The notes below the pieces were generated by a model that saw nothing but the letters and a program-made list of their open reading frames with translations, was not told the DNA's origin and did no database searches. The position numbers and the translations under genes are program-made. Shown piece after piece: positions 3,249 through 57,542 of a stretch of 64,000 nucleotides of DNA. The DNA is from Bacteroidota bacterium. GTDB lineage: Bacteria > Bacteroidota > Bacteroidia > UBA4408. The DNA lies in assembly GCA_040385525.1 (NCBI GenBank), contig JAZKHE010000005.1, forward strand, positions 96,910 to 160,909, in the 5' to 3' direction. The stretch's first letter is position 1. The number at the start of each line of letters is the position of its first letter.

Positions 3249-4505
3249 TTATGCTTTTGTTTTTTCTTCCCAAATAGCAGCTAAATTAACTATTGTAGCT
3301 ACTGCTTTTTCCATGTCTTGAACAGAAACCCATTCGTATTTAGAATGAAAAGCATGCTCACCAGCAAAAATATTTGGGCAAGGCAAGCCCATAAACGATA
3401 AGCGCGAACCATCAGTTCCGCCTCTAATACTAGTTAGTTTGGGCTCTATTCCAGTTCTTTTTACCGCTTCAATTGCATAGTCTGCAACTTCTGGATGTTT
3501 ATCTAAAACATCTTTCATATTTCTGTATTGTTCGGTTACAATAAAATCGAAACTTGATTTTTTATACGTTGAAATTATTTTTTCTACAATTTTATTTAGC
3601 TCATCTTCTAAGTGATTTAAGCCTTTTGTGGTAAAATCTCTAATTATAAATTTAATTTCAGCTTTTTCTATCGTTCCGCTAATTGATGTAGGGTGGATAA
3701 AACCTTCTTTTTGTTCTGTTGTTTCGGGCGACATTGTATTTTTAGGTAGTTGTGCTATAATTTCAGATGCAATTTTTATTGCGCTTTCCATTTTGTTTTT
3801 TGCAAAACCAGGGTGCGTGCTTACACCATAAATAGTAACACTTACGCCGTCAGCTGAGAAAGTTTCGTTTTCGATATGACCTAATTCTTCGCCATCAATA
3901 GTGTATCCAAAATCTGCATTTAATTTTTTTATGTCGAGCATTTCAACACCTCTTCCAACTTCTTCATCTGGTGTAAACAAAACACGAATGTCGCCATGCT
4001 TTATTTCTGGATTTTTTATTAAATGATGCATAGCATCCATTATCTCAGCAACACCAGCTTTGTTATCTGCGCCCAACAAAGTGGTTCCGCTTGCAGTAAT
4101 AATATCGTTACCAATTTGTTTTAATAGTGAAGGATGTTTTTTAGAAGATAAAACAATACTTGTGTCGTCGGGCAAAACAATATCGTCGCCATTGTAATTG
4201 TTGTGTACAATTGGTTTTACGTTTTCGCCACTACAATCGGGCGATGTATCCATGTGCGAACAAAAACAAATAGTAGGAATTTTTTTTGAAGAATTGCTTT
4301 TTAATGTTGCAAAAACATAACCATGCTCATCCATGTGAGTATCGGTTAAACCCATTTCTAAAAGTTCAGCAACAAGAATTTTAGCAAGATTTTTTTGCTT
4401 TTCAGTACTGGGGAAAGAGGTTGAATCTGGATTAGATTGTGTATCAATAGTAACGTAGTTTAAAAAACGTTTTGTTACTGTATTGGTGTAGTTTTGAAGT
4501 GACAT
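3249..4505 (-). CDS. pepT: peptidase T (tripeptide aminopeptidase, M20B)
   Basis: 418 aa. M20 family metal-binding motifs (HMDT...D...GADNK..EE). Size typical of PepT. Confidence 0.8.
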   Translation of the reverse strand: MSLQNYTNTVTKRFLNYVTIDTQSNPDSTSFPSTEKQKNLAKILVAELLEMGLTDTHMDEHGYVFATLKSNSSKKIPTICFCSHMDTSPDCSGENVKPIVHNNYNGDDIVLPDDTSIVLSSKKHPSLLKQIGNDIITASGTTLLGADNKAGVAEIMDAMHHLIKNPEIKHGDIRVLFTPDEEVGRGVEMLDIKKLNADFGYTIDGEELGHIENETFSADGVSVTIYGVSTHPGFAKNKMESAIKIASEIIAQLPKNTMSPETTEQKEGFIHPTSISGTIEKAEIKFIIRDFTTKGLNHLEDELNKIVEKIISTYKKSSFDFIVTEQYRNMKDVLDKHPEVADYAIEAVKRTGIEPKLTSIRGGTDGSRLSFMGLPCPNIFAGEHAFHSKYEWVSVQDMEKAVATIVNLAAIWEEKTKA

Positions 4506-5605: not shown

Positions 5606-5851
5606 TTATTTTACTTCTTCAAAATCAATTTCATGTGTTGATTTTGTGTTTTCTTTTTTTGTAAAGTTTGTATTGCATGAGTTTACACCACAACAGCCCC
5701 AATTAAATAGCGCTTGAACTAATAGCAATGTGCAAATTAAAATTACTGGTAAATCATAATTTACAATTGCGCCAACTCCAAAAAACAAACCTGCTACAAG
5801 TCGTAACCAGCGCATAAAATGCCATGGCGTATTTATAATTCTGTCTATCAT
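5606..5851 (-). CDS. DUF2892 (YgaP-like) small membrane protein
   Basis: 81 aa with two transmembrane helices and a C-terminal Cys-rich NWGCCGVNSC motif, as in rhodanese-associated YgaP C-terminal domains. Overlaps the upstream rhodanese gene by 4 nt. Confidence 0.55.
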   Translation of the reverse strand: MIDRIINTPWHFMRWLRLVAGLFFGVGAIVNYDLPVILICTLLLVQALFNWGCCGVNSCNTNFTKKENTKSTHEIDFEEVK

Positions 5852-6165
5852 CTTAACTTGCTATTTAAACTAAACCAACTTCCGCCATTGTAAACCTGTG
5901 TATAGCCATTGTTTTTTAACATCGATTTTGCCATGCCACTTCTCATACCTGATGCACAACAAGTAATAATAACTTTGTTTTTATCTTTAAGTTTAGCAAG
6001 ATTTTTCCCTAATGAATCTACAGGTATATTTATAGAACCTTTTATGCTTCCGCTTGCATATTCACCTGCGCTTCTTACATCAAGAATAATTGCGCCATTT
6101 TTTGCTAATTCAGCATAATTTACTTTTGGGCTTAAGCCAAAAATTCTTTTTAACGTATCTAACAT
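5848..6165 (-). CDS. single-domain rhodanese (sulfurtransferase)
   Basis: 105 aa. Active-site CASGMRS loop. Confidence 0.8.
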   Translation of the reverse strand: MLDTLKRIFGLSPKVNYAELAKNGAIILDVRSAGEYASGSIKGSINIPVDSLGKNLAKLKDKNKVIITCCASGMRSGMAKSMLKNNGYTQVYNGGSWFSLNSKLR

Positions 6166-51484: not shown

Positions 51485-52648
51485 ATGGCAGGAATATACA
51501 TTCACATTCCGTTTTGCAAACAGGCTTGTTATTATTGCGATTTTCATTTTTCAACTTCAACAAATAATGCGCAACAAATGGTTGATGCAATTATTTTAGA
51601 ATTAAAATTGCAAAAAAACTTTTTTCAAACCACCGATATAATAAATACAATTTATTTTGGAGGTGGCACTCCTTCTATACTTCCAACCGATTCAATTTCT
51701 AAAATAATAGACACGGTAAACAAAACATTTAACGTTGCTACGGATGCAGAAATTACTTTAGAAGCAAATCCTGATGATTTATCGACTGTAAAAATTCGCG
51801 AGTTAAAATCTACGCCAGTAAATCGTTTTAGTATAGGAACGCAATCTTTTATTGAAGAAGAATTAAAATGGATGAACCGAGCACACAATGCACAGCAAGC
51901 CGATTATTCTATTAAAGCTGTTCAAGATGCTGGTTTTACCAATATTACTATCGATTTAATTTATGGTCTTCCGCAGCAAAGCAATCACAATTGGTTGTTT
52001 TCTTTGCAAAAAGCTTTCGATTTAAATGTGCCTCATTTATCTTGCTATTGCTTAACGGTTGAAGAAAAAACTGCACTTCATCATTTTATAAAAACAAAAA
52101 AGTACAATAATATTAGCGATAAAATTGGTGAGGCTCATTTTCAATTATTAATAGAACAATCGCAACTAAATAATTTTGAGCAATACGAGATTTCTAATTT
52201 TGCTAAACAAGGATTTCAATCAAAACATAATAGCAATTATTGGAAAGGAGTTTCGTATTTAGGTGTTGGTCCTTCTGCACATTCGTTTAACGGAGAAAGA
52301 AGATTTTGGAATGTAAAAAACAATAGTTTGTATATAAATAGTTTGTTGCAAGATGGAAAAATTCCAAACGAATTTGAAGTTTTATCTACCAAAGATTTGT
52401 ACAACGAATACGTTATGACCAACTTGCGAACCGTTTGGGGTTGCAGTTTAAATAAAATTGAACAAAGCTTTGGAAACGAAGTACATACATATATTTTAAA
52501 TAATGCCAGACCTTATATTGAAAATAATAGTTTGATTATAAAAGAAAATAATTTATATTTAACCAACCAAGGTAAATTGTATGCAGATAAAATTGCATCA
52601 GATTTATTTTTGATTGATGATATAAATGAAGGCCACCATAAATACTGA
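51485..52648 (+). CDS. hemW: radical SAM heme chaperone HemW (oxygen-independent coproporphyrinogen-III oxidase-like)
   Basis: 387 aa. CxxxCxxC (CKQACYYCDF) at the N-terminus, HemN_C-like tail. Confidence 0.8.
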   Translation: MAGIYIHIPFCKQACYYCDFHFSTSTNNAQQMVDAIILELKLQKNFFQTTDIINTIYFGGGTPSILPTDSISKIIDTVNKTFNVATDAEITLEANPDDLSTVKIRELKSTPVNRFSIGTQSFIEEELKWMNRAHNAQQADYSIKAVQDAGFTNITIDLIYGLPQQSNHNWLFSLQKAFDLNVPHLSCYCLTVEEKTALHHFIKTKKYNNISDKIGEAHFQLLIEQSQLNNFEQYEISNFAKQGFQSKHNSNYWKGVSYLGVGPSAHSFNGERRFWNVKNNSLYINSLLQDGKIPNEFEVLSTKDLYNEYVMTNLRTVWGCSLNKIEQSFGNEVHTYILNNARPYIENNSLIIKENNLYLTNQGKLYADKIASDLFLIDDINEGHHKY

Positions 52649-53384
52649 TTTCGCTAGTTTTGAGGTTGATTTAAACCAGCCTGTTGATATTTCTATACCC
52701 ATTTCTAATTCTCCAAAATCGCCAAAAGCTTGGTATGTAGATGCAGTTAAAATTGAACCCGTTATGACGGAACATTTTACAGGCGATGTAAATTTGGGCG
52801 GTACTGTAAATTTTAGAAATATTTTTTTTAATCCGCATGGAAATGGCACACACACTGAATGTGTTGGGCACATTAGCAAAGAATTTTATTCGGTAAACGA
52901 TGTAAAACAATTCTTTTTTTTAGCCCAACTTATAAGTGTGACGCCTAATAAAAAAGAAAACAATGATTTGGAAATTGGTGCAAATCAAATTTCTGATATT
53001 CAAAAAAACGTTCAAGCTTTGGTTGTAAGAACTTTGCCAAACGTAGATTCTAAATTAAATAGAGATTACTCCAATACAAATCCTGCTTATTTTACAAGCG
53101 AAGTTGCTGAACTTTTAAATAAAAAAAACATTGAACATTGGTTGGTAGATTTGCCATCGGTTGATAAAGAATTAGATGGTGGCGTTTTAGCATGTCATCA
53201 TGTTTTTTGGAATTATCCGCAACAACCTGCACTACACAAAACAATAACTGAATTTATTTTTGTTCCTGATGAAGTTTCAGACGGATTATATTTATTGAAT
53301 TTACAGTTTGCACCATTTGTAAACGACGCATCACCTAGTAAACCATTACTTTTTAAAATACATAACTATGTTTCTAAATCCTAA
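52626..53384 (+). CDS. cyclase family protein (kynurenine formamidase-like)
   Basis: 252 aa. HGNGTHTECVGH resembles the HxGTHxDxPxH cyclase signature. Confidence 0.55.
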   Translation: MKATINTDFASFEVDLNQPVDISIPISNSPKSPKAWYVDAVKIEPVMTEHFTGDVNLGGTVNFRNIFFNPHGNGTHTECVGHISKEFYSVNDVKQFFFLAQLISVTPNKKENNDLEIGANQISDIQKNVQALVVRTLPNVDSKLNRDYSNTNPAYFTSEVAELLNKKNIEHWLVDLPSVDKELDGGVLACHHVFWNYPQQPALHKTITEFIFVPDEVSDGLYLLNLQFAPFVNDASPSKPLLFKIHNYVSKS

Positions 53385-53844
53385 CCTCGACAAAATTGAC
53401 ATGCAAATTTTACGAATTTTGCAAGAAAACGGACGTATTACCAACTTACAATTATCAAACGAAATTGGCTTGTCGCCAGCACCAACATTAGAACGTGTAA
53501 AGAAGTTAGAAAACACAAATATAATTAAAGGATATCATGCTGATGTGGATAGCACACAAGTTGGTGTAGGAATTATGAGCATTATGTTGGTTACTTTGGC
53601 GCGTCAAAAAGATAATGCGATACAAAATTTTAAAAAGCATATTGTAAAATTACCTGAGGTAACAGAGTGCTACCAAGTAACTGGCGATTACGATTATTTA
53701 TTAAAAACAATGACACCAGATATTGCTGGATTTGAAAAATTAATTTCTGAAAAGTTGAGCAAAATAGAAGAAATAGGTAACATGAAAACAATGGTTATTT
53801 TATCAGAAGTAAAAGACACTAAAGTTTTACCTGTTACTTATTAA
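53368..53844 (+). CDS. Lrp/AsnC family transcriptional regulator
   Basis: 158 aa. N-terminal HTH (DKIDMQILRILQENGRITNLQLSNEIGLSPAPTLERVKKLE) and a C-terminal RAM domain. Confidence 0.85.
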   Translation: MFLNPNLDKIDMQILRILQENGRITNLQLSNEIGLSPAPTLERVKKLENTNIIKGYHADVDSTQVGVGIMSIMLVTLARQKDNAIQNFKKHIVKLPEVTECYQVTGDYDYLLKTMTPDIAGFEKLISEKLSKIEEIGNMKTMVILSEVKDTKVLPVTY

Positions 53845-53847
53845 TAC

Positions 53848-54207
53848 ATGTTTGCCGACGAAATAAGAGATTATTGCATTGCAAAAAAGGGAGTAACAGA
53901 AAGTTTTCCTTTTGATGAAACTACACTAGTATTTAAGGTGATGAACAAAATGTTTTTGTTGGTTGCCTTAGATGAAAGTCCTGTGCGATTTAATGCAAAG
54001 TGCGATCCAGAAAAAGCAACTGAGTTACGTGAGCAATATCCAGATGCTGTTTTACCAGGCTACCACATGAATAAACAGCATTGGAACACCATAATTTGCA
54101 ACGATTTTTTAAGTGAAAAACAAACCAAGCAAATGATTGACGATTCTTATAATTTAATTATTGAGTCGTTGCCTAAGAAAGTTAAAGCAGAGTTGGAGAG
54201 TTTATAA
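53848..54207 (+). CDS. MmcQ/YjbR family DNA-binding protein
   Basis: 119 aa. N-terminal pattern IRDYCIAKKGVTESFPFDETTLVFKV characteristic of the family. Confidence 0.65.
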   Translation: MFADEIRDYCIAKKGVTESFPFDETTLVFKVMNKMFLLVALDESPVRFNAKCDPEKATELREQYPDAVLPGYHMNKQHWNTIICNDFLSEKQTKQMIDDSYNLIIESLPKKVKAELESL

Positions 54208-54254
54208 ATGCTAATAAAGAAAAAAAATAATAATAGCTTTAGTAAACGAATAAA

Positions 54255-54950
54255 CACAAGCGGACGCTTGCGCCAGAGTGAGTATTATTAAACGGAATAT
54301 TTCGGTATTAAACTACTACTATGAGAATATTTAAAATTAAAACAGATGTTAATAACGTTCAATTAATCCAACCATCAAATCATTTAAATATTACATTAGA
54401 AAGGTTCAGGTTTGATTGTAAAACTAAAATGAAGGATTTTGCAGATATTGAGTTTTATGTATACAATCCAAAATTAAAACCGAAAAATTTTTATTCAACA
54501 AGCGGGGGGTGTTTAGTTTTTGACAGAAAAACATCTGAATTATGTAGAACAGTATTTGAGATGAGCGGTGAGGTTATCCCAATTAAAATGGAAAGAGATG
54601 GCGAGTTATATATACTAAATGTTTTAGAATGCATGAATGGATTAGATTATGAAAATACAAAATGAGATTATTATGATAATGGAACAAAAGGCAGAATTTT
54701 AGAATATGTATTTTTAAAAGAACGAGTAATCAATGAATCAACAATTTTTAAGATTCCAGAAACTAGTAAAACTGATATTTTTTGCTACTCTGATGTAAAA
54801 GATAGACAAGATGAATTCTATCATATTTATCATGATAATAATTTAACAGGTTTAATTTTCGAAGAAATCAAAACGAATTAAAGGTGTTTTTTATGAAAAC
54901 CCTTAGCTAGCGAGGGCTTGCCAATTGTCTGGCGCAAGCGTCCGCTTGTG
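54255..54950. mobile_element. about 700-bp cassette bounded by perfect 23-bp inverted repeats (MITE-like cargo element or invertible segment)
   Basis: CACAAGCGGACGCTTGCGCCAGA at 54255-54277. Its exact reverse complement is at 54928-54950. The repeats are 61% GC in a roughly 30% GC context. The element contains only one small ORF. Confidence 0.45.
54321..54665 (+). CDS. small hypothetical protein (immunity-protein-like); possibly the 5' part of a 186-codon gene disrupted by an in-frame TGA
   Basis: 114-aa ORF. The same frame stays open for 71 more codons after TGA at 54663-54665, ending at TAA 54878-54880, with no new ATG. Confidence 0.4.
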   Translation: MRIFKIKTDVNNVQLIQPSNHLNITLERFRFDCKTKMKDFADIEFYVYNPKLKPKNFYSTSGGCLVFDRKTSELCRTVFEMSGEVIPIKMERDGELYILNVLECMNGLDYENTK

Positions 54951-54990
54951 CTAAATGTTAAGAAACTTATTTAGTATAATATTCTTACTT

Positions 54991-56325
54991 CTATCTGTCA
55001 AACTCTAATCGCATACCACGGCTGCTTTCATCAAAAATTCCGTTGTGGTAAACTAGTTTCCCGCTAACTATTGTAGTTTTTATTTGTGAGTTAAAAGTCG
55101 TTCCTTCAAAAGGACTCCATTTGCATTGCGATAGAATGTTTTCTTTTGTTACAGTTGTTTTACTATTTAAATCAACTAAAACTAAATCTGCATAATAACC
55201 TTCTCTAATATATCCGCGTTTGTTTATGCTAAACATATCTGCAACATTGTGTGCGGTTTTTTGAGCAATTTTTTCTAAACTAATTTTACCTTGTTTGTGC
55301 ATTTCAATTAATGCAAGTAACGAGTGTTGTACTAGCGGTCCGCCAGATGGTGCGTTTAAATAACTTTGGTTTTTCTCTTCAATTGTATGCGGTGCGTGGT
55401 CAGTTGCTATTACGTCAATAGTATCATTTAAAACTGCTTTTAAAATAGCATCTCTATCTGTTTCTGATTTAATTGCCGGATTCCATTTTATAAAATTACC
55501 TTTTGTTGCATAATCTTTATCACTAAACCATAAATGGTGCACGCAAGCTTCGGCAGTAATTCTTTTTTCTTTTAAAGGAATTTTATTTGTAAATAATTCT
55601 AACTCTTTTTCAGTTGAAATGTGTAAAATATGTAAACGTGTATTGTGCTTTTTTGCTAAGTTAACTGCAAACGAAGATGAAGCGTAGCATCCATCAGCAT
55701 TACGAATTATAGGGTGCATTTCTGCACCAATGTTTTCTCCTAATTTATTTTTTAGTGTCTCAAGATTTTTTTTAATCATGCCGTCATCTTCACAATGGGT
55801 TGCGATTAATAGTTTAACGTGTTTAAAAACATTTTCTAATGCTTGTTTGTCATCAACGACTAAATTACCTGTAGACGAACCCATAAATATTTTTACACCA
55901 CAAACATTTTTAGGATTTGTTTTTAAAATATCTTCTAAGTTAGTATTTGATGTTCCGATGTAAAATGAATAATTGGCAAGCGAATTTTTTTCTGCTATTT
56001 TATATTTATCTTCTAATAATTCTTGTGTTAGTGCAGCAGGCACTGTGTTTGGCATTTCCATAAAAGAAGTTATTCCGCCTGCAACGGCAGCTTTTGCTTC
56101 ACTATAAATTGTTCCTTTATGTGTTAAGCCTGGTTCTCTAAAATGCACTTGGTCGTCAATTAAACCAGGAAATAAATGCAAACCTTTTGCATCTATAACG
56201 TGCTGTGCCTTTTCGTTAATTTCGTTTTCTGAAATTTTTTCAATTAAACCATTATTTATTAAAATATTGGCAATACAAATTTTGCCTTCGTTAACTACAG
56301 AGGCGTTTTTAATTAAAATATCCAT
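54991..56325 (-). CDS. pyrC: dihydroorotase (multifunctional-complex type)
   Basis: 444 aa amidohydrolase. DDQVHFREPG metal-binding motif, dihydroorotase-length. Confidence 0.75.
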   Translation of the reverse strand: MDILIKNASVVNEGKICIANILINNGLIEKISENEINEKAQHVIDAKGLHLFPGLIDDQVHFREPGLTHKGTIYSEAKAAVAGGITSFMEMPNTVPAALTQELLEDKYKIAEKNSLANYSFYIGTSNTNLEDILKTNPKNVCGVKIFMGSSTGNLVVDDKQALENVFKHVKLLIATHCEDDGMIKKNLETLKNKLGENIGAEMHPIIRNADGCYASSSFAVNLAKKHNTRLHILHISTEKELELFTNKIPLKEKRITAEACVHHLWFSDKDYATKGNFIKWNPAIKSETDRDAILKAVLNDTIDVIATDHAPHTIEEKNQSYLNAPSGGPLVQHSLLALIEMHKQGKISLEKIAQKTAHNVADMFSINKRGYIREGYYADLVLVDLNSKTTVTKENILSQCKWSPFEGTTFNSQIKTTIVSGKLVYHNGIFDESSRGMRLEFDR

Positions 56326-56331
56326 AAAATA

Positions 56332-57045
56332 TTAGTTAATTTTTTTAAAGCGCATTTGCAAAACGCCTAAAAAGGCTTCTTTAAAAATGCTCGTGCTCAT
56401 TTTAGAAACACCTTCTTTTCTATCGATAAAAGTGATAGGAACTTCAACAACTTTAAAACCTTTTTTAATGGCTGTATACTTCATTTCAATTTGAAAAGCA
56501 TAACCAATAAATTTTATTTCGTCAAGTTTAATACTTTCTAAAACCTTTCGTTTGTAGCATTTAAAGCCTGCGGTTGTATCTTTTATAGAAATCCAAAGTA
56601 CAATTCTAACATAAACTGAAGCGAAATACGACATTAAAATTCTGCCAATTGGCCAGTTACTTACTTTACCACCTTTTACGTAGCGCGAACCCACCGAAAC
56701 ATCAGCTCCATCTTCGCAAGCTTTTAATAAGCGAGGCAAGTCTTCTGGGTTGTGAGAAAAATCGGCATCCATTTCAAAAATAAAATCGTACTGATTTTTT
56801 ATTCCCCACTTAAAACCATGTATGTAAGCAGTTCCTAAACCTAATTTTCCTTTTCGTTCTTCAATAAAAAGACGACCATCAAATTCGCTTTGTAATTTTT
56901 TTACAATGGAAGCAGTACCGTCGGGCGAATTATCCTCAACTATTAAAATATGAAGTGGAGTTGGTAAAGAAAAAACCTTTCGAATGATTTTTTCGATATT
57001 CTCTTTTTCATTGTAAGTAGGAATAATTACGAGGTTTTTCGACAC
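56332..57045 (-). CDS. GT2 polyprenyl-phosphate glycosyltransferase (Dpm1/ArnC-like)
   Basis: 237 aa. N-terminal IIPTYNE...DDNSPDGT motif and DAD. Confidence 0.75.
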   Translation of the reverse strand: MSKNLVIIPTYNEKENIEKIIRKVFSLPTPLHILIVEDNSPDGTASIVKKLQSEFDGRLFIEERKGKLGLGTAYIHGFKWGIKNQYDFIFEMDADFSHNPEDLPRLLKACEDGADVSVGSRYVKGGKVSNWPIGRILMSYFASVYVRIVLWISIKDTTAGFKCYKRKVLESIKLDEIKFIGYAFQIEMKYTAIKKGFKVVEVPITFIDRKEGVSKMSTSIFKEAFLGVLQMRFKKIN

Positions 57046-57140
57046 TGTTAATTTTTTTACGAAGATAATCTAAAGCCATTAAACTAACAATTTTTAATTT
57101 ATTTCGTACAAATACTCAAAATGCTTATTTTAGCTACTTA

Positions 57141-57542
57141 ATGAGGCAATTTAAATATATATTACTATTAGCTTTAACATTAATTAACTGGTGTTATGCG
57201 CAGCCTTATAAGCATAAATTAAAGGGAACGGCCAGTTATTACCACAATAAATTCAATAATAGAAAAACATCATCGGGCGAAACTTTTCACAACATAAACT
57301 ATACCGCAGCGCACAAAACAATGCCTTTGGGTACTTGGGTAATTGTTACACGCTTAAGCAATCGTTTGTATGTTATTGTAAAAGTAAACGATAGGTTACC
57401 GCCAGATTCTAAACGAACAATTGATTTAGCGCAAGCAGCAGCCCGGAAATTAAAAATGATTGAACGCGGTTTGGCAAAAGTAAAAATTGAAGTAATTCCT
57501 CGTTACTCCATTAAAATGATAATGCCTATAAGTAATAATTAG
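57141..57542 (+). CDS. RlpA-like (DPBB-domain) septal-ring lytic transglycosylase family lipoprotein
   Basis: 133 aa. Signal peptide, GTASYYHNKFNNRKTSSGETF and MPLGTWVIVT DPBB motifs. Confidence 0.75.
   Translation: MRQFKYILLLALTLINWCYAQPYKHKLKGTASYYHNKFNNRKTSSGETFHNINYTAAHKTMPLGTWVIVTRLSNRLYVIVKVNDRLPPDSKRTIDLAQAAARKLKMIERGLAKVKIEVIPRYSIKMIMPISNN

Follow-up and report, generated by a model that had tools for sequence, protein, structure and literature searches.

The window analysed here, the whole stretch of 64,000 nucleotides (positions 96,910 to 160,909 of contig JAZKHE010000005.1, assembly GCA_040385525.1) from a Bacteroidota bacterium of the GTDB lineage UBA4408, carries between the convergent genes yjbR and pyrC a 783-bp block, in which a mirror-image pair of repetitive extragenic palindromes (REPs) encloses an inactivated immunity gene together with the last codons of a toxin gene. 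The REPs are of the kind that belongs to REP-associated tyrosine transposases (RAYTs), and the history that we consider probable is that the orphan module of the immunity gene arose next to a RAYT unit and was then relocated with its REPs. The broader proposal, that the RAYT/REP systems of Bacteroidota capture modules of toxin tail and immunity gene and carry these, bracketed by REPs, as cassettes to new chromosomal sites, is offered as a tentative and rather doubtful generalization.

The two arms were found by a repeat search of the window and are 23 nt each, 100% complementary and spaced 650 nt; the complementarity ends exactly at 23 nt with no extension. They are the only copies in the window when up to three mismatches are allowed, a two-copy occurrence for which 0.01 was expected by chance and which was not reached in any of 100 shuffles (0/100 with at least two copies), and their G+C content is 61% (14/23) compared with 32% for the window. 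The initial annotation, made from the letters of the window, had described a perfect 23-bp inverted repeat with GC-rich arms beyond chance around one small open reading frame (ORF), between mmcQ/yjbR and pyrC and with no transposase or recombinase of its own, and this description was confirmed throughout, the only ORF of the interior being that of the immunity gene. The parts of the block and its borders are listed in Table 1.

Table 1. Coordinates of the block, its parts and the two genes that border it in the window.
Feature	Coordinates	Strand	Basis and remarks
Whole inserted block (putative insertion)	54208..54990	no strand	783 bp; 4 bp (CTAA) instead in relative L121
Left outer flank	54208..54254	no strand	47 bp, AT-rich; outside the repeat, inside the indel; absent from L121
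REP copy, + orientation, CACAAGCGGACGCTTGCGCCAGA	54255..54277	+	Hairpin core CAAGC-GGAC-GCTTG
Remnant of AHH-nuclease toxin 3' end, VLLNGIFRY*	54282..54311	+	Translation and DNA homology to the toxin ends of L125/L130
Orphan Imm11-family immunity pseudogene, 186 codons	54321..54881	+	Pfam PF07791; in-frame TGA at 54663-54665
Spacer from Imm11 stop to right REP, 46 bp	54882..54927	no strand	First ~18 bp alignable with L125
REP copy, - orientation (TCTGGCGCAAGCGTCCGCTTGTG on the + strand)	54928..54950	-	Repeat search, folding
Right outer flank	54951..54990	no strand	40 bp, AT-rich; in the indel; absent from L121
yjbR, left border of insertion site	53848..54207	+	Pfam YjbR PF04237, E=1.9e-31
Dihydroorotase (pyrC-like), right border of insertion site	54991..56325	-	Homologues named dihydroorotase, with PF01979/PF12890

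The arm sequence is widely dispersed in the phylum. In a scan with one genome per species, at least 119 stretches (L001-L119) contained the exact 23-mer; they come from 48 Bacteroidota genome records among the matches listed, and the hosts and copy counts of this paragraph all refer to those matches. The hosts fall into Cytophagales, Sphingobacteriales, Chitinophagales, Bacteroidales, Flavobacteriales, and Balneolaceae, and the named ones include Pontibacter, Rufibacter, Pedobacter, Mucilaginibacter, Chitinophagaceae, Cyclobacteriaceae, and several Bacteroidales. Genomes may hold several copies, with many in the records of Pontibacter and Rufibacter and two in the 64-kb window of the source organism. 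When 129 copies were aligned with 90 nt on either side, the only common flank was a preceding GG; the unit is therefore about 25 nt long, GGCACAAGC-GGAC-GCTTGCGCC-AGA with the 5' GG. Its part GGCACAAGC-GGAC-GCTTGCGCC forms a hairpin with a 9-bp stem, for which folding gave -6.5 kcal/mol on the strand with an A.C mismatch and -8.4 kcal/mol (z=-4.0) on the strand with a G.T wobble, the wobble being on the + strand at the right copy of the window. The pairing of the stem is kept in variants, with position 1/22 changed from GC to AT in 10 copies, and likewise in the variant CACGAGCG...CGCTCGCG of locus L165. Among 225 approximate copies, 50 adjacent pairs of the orientation "- then +" lie within 2.5 kb, 20 of which are doublets 39-80 bp apart, and the copies are for the most part singletons or such doublets. 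Neither GTAG nor CTAC stands at either foot of the 25-nt unit. The 23-mer was absent from viral contigs, the 783-bp block had no match in plasmids, and a full-text literature search for the repeat sequence returned nothing relevant.

What links the repeat to a transposase is the gene that it repeatedly flanks. An ORF of 182 amino acids lies between two inverted copies 612-688 bp apart in L028 (twice), L049, L083, L088, L091, L116, and L032, and the RAYT of L165 is also flanked by inverted REP copies. The ORFs of L028 and L091 match Pfam Y1_Tnp and pass the NCBIfam model NF047646, "REP-associated tyrosine transposase", with 101-104 bits at a cut-off of 80. Because the 23-mer is dispersed, forms a hairpin, and flanks RAYT genes, the arms are identified from their sequence as REPs of a RAYT system of the Y1/HUH type. 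The associated proteins are 182 amino acids long and share the motifs SH[MV]H, FWQQ, and YIHENP/YIHDNP/YLHDNP/YLHNNP. The Bacteroidetes RAYT subclass 2.6 (Quentin et al., 2018; PMC6006769), which equals group 5 of Bertels et al. (2017), has a signature of approximately 179 amino acids, a HuH motif NH[LIV]H, WQ, and a Y-motif YIH[QN]NP, and is found mostly in Bacteroidetes; its genes have "atypical secondary structures" as flanking sequences, of which more copies occur at other places in the genome (PMC6006769), with which the missing GTAG foot is consistent. By length and motifs, apart from the HuH variant, the RAYTs associated with the 23-mer would fit this subclass. Their mutual identity is just 43-72% around an identical 23-mer. 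One 23-nt REP that is unchanged across several orders while its RAYTs diverged is unusual, as REPs are normally lineage-specific, and this invariance runs counter to the usual view, in which a lineage has REPs of its own that co-evolve with the RAYT.

Several arrangements of the REP in other genomes were also recorded. In L028 (1181-3450), two tandem RAYT units that share 99.5% identity, each with exact REPs on its flanks, enclose 912 bp of cargo, namely a fragment of a cyclic-nucleotide (cNMP)-binding gene and a 135-aa lipoprotein-like ORF, in a layout resembling a composite transposon; the contig carries a Bifidobacteriaceae label, probably owing to a binning error. In Pontibacter loci (e.g., L005, L026, L039, L058, L067, and L111), the REP sits within larger composite clusters reminiscent of mosaics of the bacterial interspersed mosaic element (BIME) type, which hold short repeats of the AGTATAAA/GTATAGCC type and a second hairpin, GGCTTTTCAAGCCAG...GAGTCACAGACTCGAC. 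Many copies outside Pontibacter (e.g., L025, L046, L053, L070, L098, and L114) have a GGGG run 1-5 nt past the CCAGA end, equal to CCCC before a - copy as in L165 and L151, and its recurrence suggests that the functional REP is longer than the 23-mer; neither copy of the window has such a run. Two Bacteroidales metagenome-assembled genomes, L025 (256-2251) and L114 (1741), contain direct REP copies 0.9-1.1 kb apart, each with the same conserved upstream segment of approximately 45 nt (cattttgc...cctttac...aaacaaagg); the genes between them lie on the opposite strand, and the arrangement may represent another type of cassette array.

The cargo of the window pair belongs to a known immunity family. 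Its ORF, called immunity-like and in-frame-stopped by the initial annotation, matches Imm11 (PF07791) with 26.4 bits (cut-off 22.1; E=4.9e-6) over residues 92-185, a match that spans the single TGA read as Trp; NCBIfam holds no model for it. There are 84 protein homologues, most of them 183-190 amino acids long, with identities of at most 80%. At the TGA column, 16 of 17 aligned homologues have Trp and one has Phe, so the stop is explained as a TGG>TGA change, and a Logan assembly of run SRR26324626 has the same sequence. The gene is thus a pseudogene through this nonsense mutation. The TGA as a recoded codon for Trp was considered and rejected, as TGA ends two genes of the window and is internal in no other real gene, every Trp codon being TGG. 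The tally of stops in 56 long ORFs of the window gave 43 TAA, 12 TAG, and 1 TGA; the TGA stops are those of the ORFs 51485-52648 and 5848-6165, one of which is an extra 105-aa ORF outside the tally, and an in-frame TAA or TAG follows 1-3 codons past both.

Homologues of the gene start a few bases (6 nt) past AHH toxin genes in L125/126, L130-134, L163/164, L169, and L173-176, the toxin-linked homologues being 42-80% identical, and an AHH toxin also directly precedes the Imm11 homologue in most of 28 metagenome loci. The pairing of Imm11 with Tox-AHH has been described before (Zhang et al., 2012; PMC3482391). In the window, DNA homology to the L125 and L130 loci reaches upstream of the ATG to 54284, where the tail VLLNGIFRY* corresponds to ...ELLNGTFPY* at the toxin ends of both; on the other side, the 3' blastn alignment with the L125 downstream region extends to window position 54899. 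The left REP ends 4 bp short of this remnant, of which the last nine toxin codons survive. As only this nine-codon tail is left, the window copy of Imm11 is an orphan, and the cargo is recognized as an orphan module of toxin tail and immunity gene whose toxin was cut off at the REP. The remnant means that the module arose at a toxin locus and not at yjbR|pyrC, and the distance of 4 bp marks the REP as the breakpoint of the module, not as a later addition. A homogeneous polyimmunity locus of the same family was seen in L137 (1-3819), where at least five tandem units of approximately 695 bp each carry an AHH tail of ~33 amino acids and an Imm11 paralogue, with no REPs.

The site between yjbR and pyrC differs among relatives. 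L121 has a dihydroorotase homologue 95% identical to that of the window and flanking DNA 92-94% identical, with blastn alignments of window 52000-54207 to L121 8547-6340 (94.2%) and of window 54991-57500 to L121 6335-3826 (92.2%). There, the stop codons of the two genes are 4 bp apart (CTAA), with no counterpart to the window block and no REP-like sequence in L121. The empty junction shows that the whole block is the indel, and the block is probably an insertion into the 4-bp gap of the convergent genes; that the locus is accessory, as the initial annotation had supposed, is therefore supported by the empty interval. In the more distant relatives L122/123 (86% PyrC identity), the same junction holds a gene for a 1055-aa MmeI-like (N6_Mtase/Eco57I) restriction-modification protein, which in L122 (2722-5889) overlaps and truncates the 3' end of yjbR, and no trace of REP or Imm11 is seen at the L122 junction. 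Three states of the junction in three related lineages identify yjbR|pyrC as a recurrent landing place for accessory DNA.

The borders of the block bear on one of the two readings put forward at the outset, a non-autonomous cargo element resembling a miniature inverted-repeat transposable element (MITE). A classical MITE is a deletion derivative of an insertion sequence (IS) of the DDE type; its inverted repeats are terminal, and a target-site duplication accompanies them. Inverted repeats, a missing internal transposase, and presence/absence polymorphism are all features of the block. The repeats, however, are not terminal, no duplication is visible at the junctions when they are compared with the empty site of L121, the repeat is a 23-bp hairpin unit with unshared flanks in the 129 aligned copies, and its association is with Y1/HUH RAYT genes rather than DDE transposases, all of which makes a classical MITE extremely improbable. 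The MITE-like idea points the right way all the same, because the arms, as REPs, are the substrate of a RAYT acting in trans; it is the non-terminal arms, the missing duplication, and the reversed orientation that depart from it. A common dispersed repeat with no tie to insertions had been named by the initial annotation as a refuting finding; the 23-mer is indeed dispersed across Bacteroidota, yet here it is tied to a presence/absence polymorphism.

A similar bracket recurs at other loci. Four contigs from four samples (L165-168) carry an Imm11 gene 75% identical to the window ORF, in the order RAYT 3' end, REP(+) variant GGCACGAGCGAGACGCTCGCGCTAG, 55-aa AHH tail, Imm11, REP(-) variant, RAYT, REP(+). 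The second RAYT is disrupted, the polarity equals that of the window, and the hairpin shows compensatory changes. The exact 23-mer is present in L088 (Pedobacter fastidiosus), where the order runs from a large protein and a small ORF through a REP doublet to a 52-aa ORF, which begins at the REP(+) end and whose match to the CdiA_C toxin domain covers the final 47 positions of that domain; behind this tail stand a 153-aa ORF, a second doublet, a RAYT, and a third doublet. L088 is read from this gene order as the same REP bracket around an unrelated toxin family. The stretch 4650-6870 of L088 has three REP doublets (72-74 bp apart), whose spacers are conserved, as is their left extension, ctatctggtttaaggttactctag; they part successive cassettes of a 158-aa ORF, of CdiA_C tail and 153-aa ORF, and of the RAYT. 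The outer flanks of 47 and 40 bp in the window were compared with these spacers as possible former doublet spacers, and the visual likeness was not significant (shuffles, P=0.09-0.75).

RAYT genes also lie next to toxin-immunity modules with other REPs or with the toxin intact. In L151, the AHH toxin-Imm11 pair is intact, and 37 bp past it come a REP(-)-like sequence and a RAYT; this REP(-) 3' of Imm11 (1585-1670) looks split by approximately 50 nt in its loop (CTGGCGCAAGCGTC ... CTTGTG) and lies closely upstream of the RAYT. In L127-129, an orphan tail and Imm11 lie directly against a RAYT whose REP is another one (73-nt inverted repeats), and in L163/164, an AHH-Imm11 pair is followed by a distant RAYT-like gene, which has 31-nt inverted repeats of its own. 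RAYT-like genes of four lineages thus lie no more than a few hundred bp from AHH/Imm11 modules (L127-129, L151, L163/164, and L165-168) among approximately 30 distinct loci, an enrichment that was noted post hoc. The right junction (Imm11 stop, 33-46 bp, REP(-)) has the same position in the window, L165, and L151, the spacers being too diverged to prove common ancestry. A perfect inverted repeat of 101-104 nt around an Imm11 homologue in L148 (2881-2981 / 3683-3783) was set aside as no biological parallel; its second arm ends at the contig end, and it is most likely an assembly fold-back.

These loci also allow the other early reading to be judged, an inverton, that is, a 650-bp segment flipped by a trans-acting invertase so that expression is switched. 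Invertons of Bacteroidales have inverted repeats of 10-30 bp around a segment of a few hundred bp and are served by invertases of the Mpi/Tsr type. A perfect inverted repeat around a segment of approximately 0.65 kb in a Bacteroidota genome resembles them, and read-through from yjbR would be possible in one orientation, read-through from pyrC in the opposite one. The arms, however, are a dispersed REP that in its 48 genomes among the matches listed occurs mostly as singletons, in short doublets, or around RAYTs. The gene calls covering approximately 6 kb on each side include no invertase or other recombinase, the enclosed gene is a pseudogene, both assemblies of the locus (the window and L120) and the four contigs L165-168 show a single orientation, and the polarity of the gene relative to REP(+) and REP(-) is constant in the window, L165, and L088. 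An inverton is accordingly very improbable, although rare flipping could go unseen in assemblies. A practical rule for annotation would be to read GC-rich inverted repeats with this 23-bp sequence in Bacteroidota as REPs and not as invertons.

Another possibility is that two REPs inserted independently around a pre-existing orphan Imm11 gene and that L121 later deleted the interval. REPs are intergenic by nature and often single, and just one empty-site genome is known, as this sequence of events would allow. Against it, the sole two REPs in 64 kb stand as mirror images on the two sides of one 561-bp gene, the left one is 4 bp from a truncated toxin tail, the junction of L121 is a clean 4 bp while L122 is free of REP and Imm11, and the same bracket is found in other lineages. 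Independent insertion is thus quite improbable.

The history preferred here, formation beside a RAYT unit and relocation with the REPs, would comprise three steps. A RAYT unit or its REPs would first settle beside a toxin-immunity pair, as in L151. REPs would then come to bracket the toxin tail and the immunity gene, as in L165-168 and L088, either through a second REP/RAYT unit or through a REP-to-REP deletion that removes most of the toxin. The last step would bring the REP-bracketed piece to the gap between yjbR and pyrC, through either a trans-acting RAYT that uses the REP hairpins or recombination that follows horizontal transfer. In size and symmetry the block matches a RAYT unit, and a RAYT in trans is attractive because of this likeness, the borders tens of bases outside the hairpins, and the missing target duplication, all of which agree with single-strand transposition of the HUH/Y1 (IS200/IS605) type; a relocation catalyzed by a RAYT may be inferred.

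Several findings weigh against this history. Between the hairpins and the ends of the indel lie 47 and 40 bp, and neither a target-site duplication nor a known cleavage motif is visible at the junctions. The window pair is "+ then -", with the CCAGA ends inward, whereas the RAYT-flanking pairs and the doublets are "- then +"; it is therefore no canonical REPIN (a REP doublet) or REPtron (a RAYT with its REPs) unit, and at a spacing of 650 bp, it also falls outside the short-spaced inverted doublet by which a REPIN is recognized. The 5' GG usual for the REP is lacking at both window copies, being AA at the left one. A tblastn search detected no RAYT homologue in the 64-kb window, so that a mobilizing enzyme within the genome is unproven. 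A second copy of this very cassette was not found; the 23-mer occurs in 0 of the 28 metagenome Imm11 loci, the same REP is not found around the Imm11 homologues of L125-134, and a variant REP pair is present in L165-168 only. Orphans with toxin tails exist without REPs, for example in L170-172, L169, and the L137 array. The polarity of the change is not formally proven, as a single empty-site relative leaves insertion here to be weighed against deletion there.

The reversed pair, the absence of a RAYT from the window, and the lack of a second cassette make recombination with REPs as passive passengers a serious rival, albeit one that we hold to be unlikely. The block would then have been assembled elsewhere in the population and have entered by illegitimate or homologous recombination after horizontal transfer with no RAYT involved, the REPs being mere hairpin-forming neighbors, perhaps transcript ends or insulators. 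In favor of it, yjbR|pyrC is a general hotspot (empty in L121, the Imm11 block here, the MmeI-like gene in L122/123), the indel borders fall at two stop codons and not at the REPs, and toxin-tail orphans do occur with no REPs. It leaves unexplained, however, why the REP(+)...REP(-) bracket recurs in L165-168 and L088 and why four RAYT lineages stand beside AHH/Imm11 modules, RAYTs being reported at approximately one to two copies per genome (PMC6006769).

Among known systems, the arms resemble those of REP/REPIN-RAYT systems ("REPtrons") in being a short, imperfect, dispersed extragenic hairpin, often in inverted doublets, that flanks a single Y1/HUH gene of approximately 180 codons. They differ in having no GTAG or CGTC head and in the HuH motif SH[MV]H instead of NH[LIV]H of the associated RAYTs, and the window copies differ further in standing 650 bp apart, in reversed orientation, around a gene that is not a RAYT. 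Elements of the IS200/IS605 family use Y1/HUH enzymes that recognize subterminal hairpins, with borders tens of bases outside these and no target duplication. The offsets of 47 and 40 bp and the missing duplication of the window block fit these elements and those of their derivatives that are non-autonomous and end in hairpins, the palindrome-associated transposable elements (PATEs). In IS200/IS605, by comparison, the hairpins of the two ends are read on one and the same strand, while those of the window are mirror images; the block has neither tnpA nor tnpB, and no conserved cleavage tetranucleotide was identified in it.

The cargo, in turn, resembles the orphan modules and homogeneous Imm11 arrays described for polymorphic toxin systems (Zhang et al., 2012; PMC3482391), since Imm11 is preceded by a 3' remnant of its cognate Tox-AHH as in L137, L169, and L170. 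Unlike orphan and polyimmunity loci, the window module is single, far from a toxin gene, between housekeeping genes, bracketed by REPs, and inactivated. The rAID-1 clusters (recombinase-associated acquired interbacterial defense) consist of a XerD-like tyrosine recombinase followed by at least two co-oriented orphan immunity genes (bioRxiv 10.1101/471110), and they share with the window block orphan immunity genes of Bacteroidota, repeated intergenic sequences, and a putative mobilizing enzyme. Membership in rAID-1 was rejected, the block having a single gene, no XerD-like recombinase, and no array, and its repeat is a hairpin suited to an HUH/Y1 transposase.

REP/RAYT systems and orphan immunity modules are both already known, while the REP pair with cargo, the repeated adjacency of RAYTs and toxin loci, and the invariance of the 23-mer appear to be new; no paper linking RAYTs to toxin-immunity loci was found. 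REPs and RAYTs are usually seen as a closed system, in which the transposase copies tiny hairpin doublets only and the benefit to the host is open. The window locus departs from this view, as its REP pair has a real gene between the arms and is present or absent as a block. If the broader proposal of REP-bracketed cassettes is true, a "domesticated" REP transposase system would for the first time be seen to carry cargo genes, and bacteria would have a second route, besides the rAID recombinase arrays, for collecting orphan immunity genes. If the link is mechanistic, REP systems would have a concrete role in shuffling defense genes against bacterial toxins.

The wider surroundings of the block gave few further signals. 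No tRNA genes were detected in the window, and an Rfam scan of 53800-55300 at E<=1 returned no family. A scan for sigma-70 promoters and terminators found nothing that exceeded the shuffle expectation, the sole terminator-like match being the left REP on the minus strand. By gene calls, the close neighborhood comprises AsnC, YjbR, dihydroorotase, and a glycosyltransferase, with the AsnC/Lrp regulator gene preceding yjbR.

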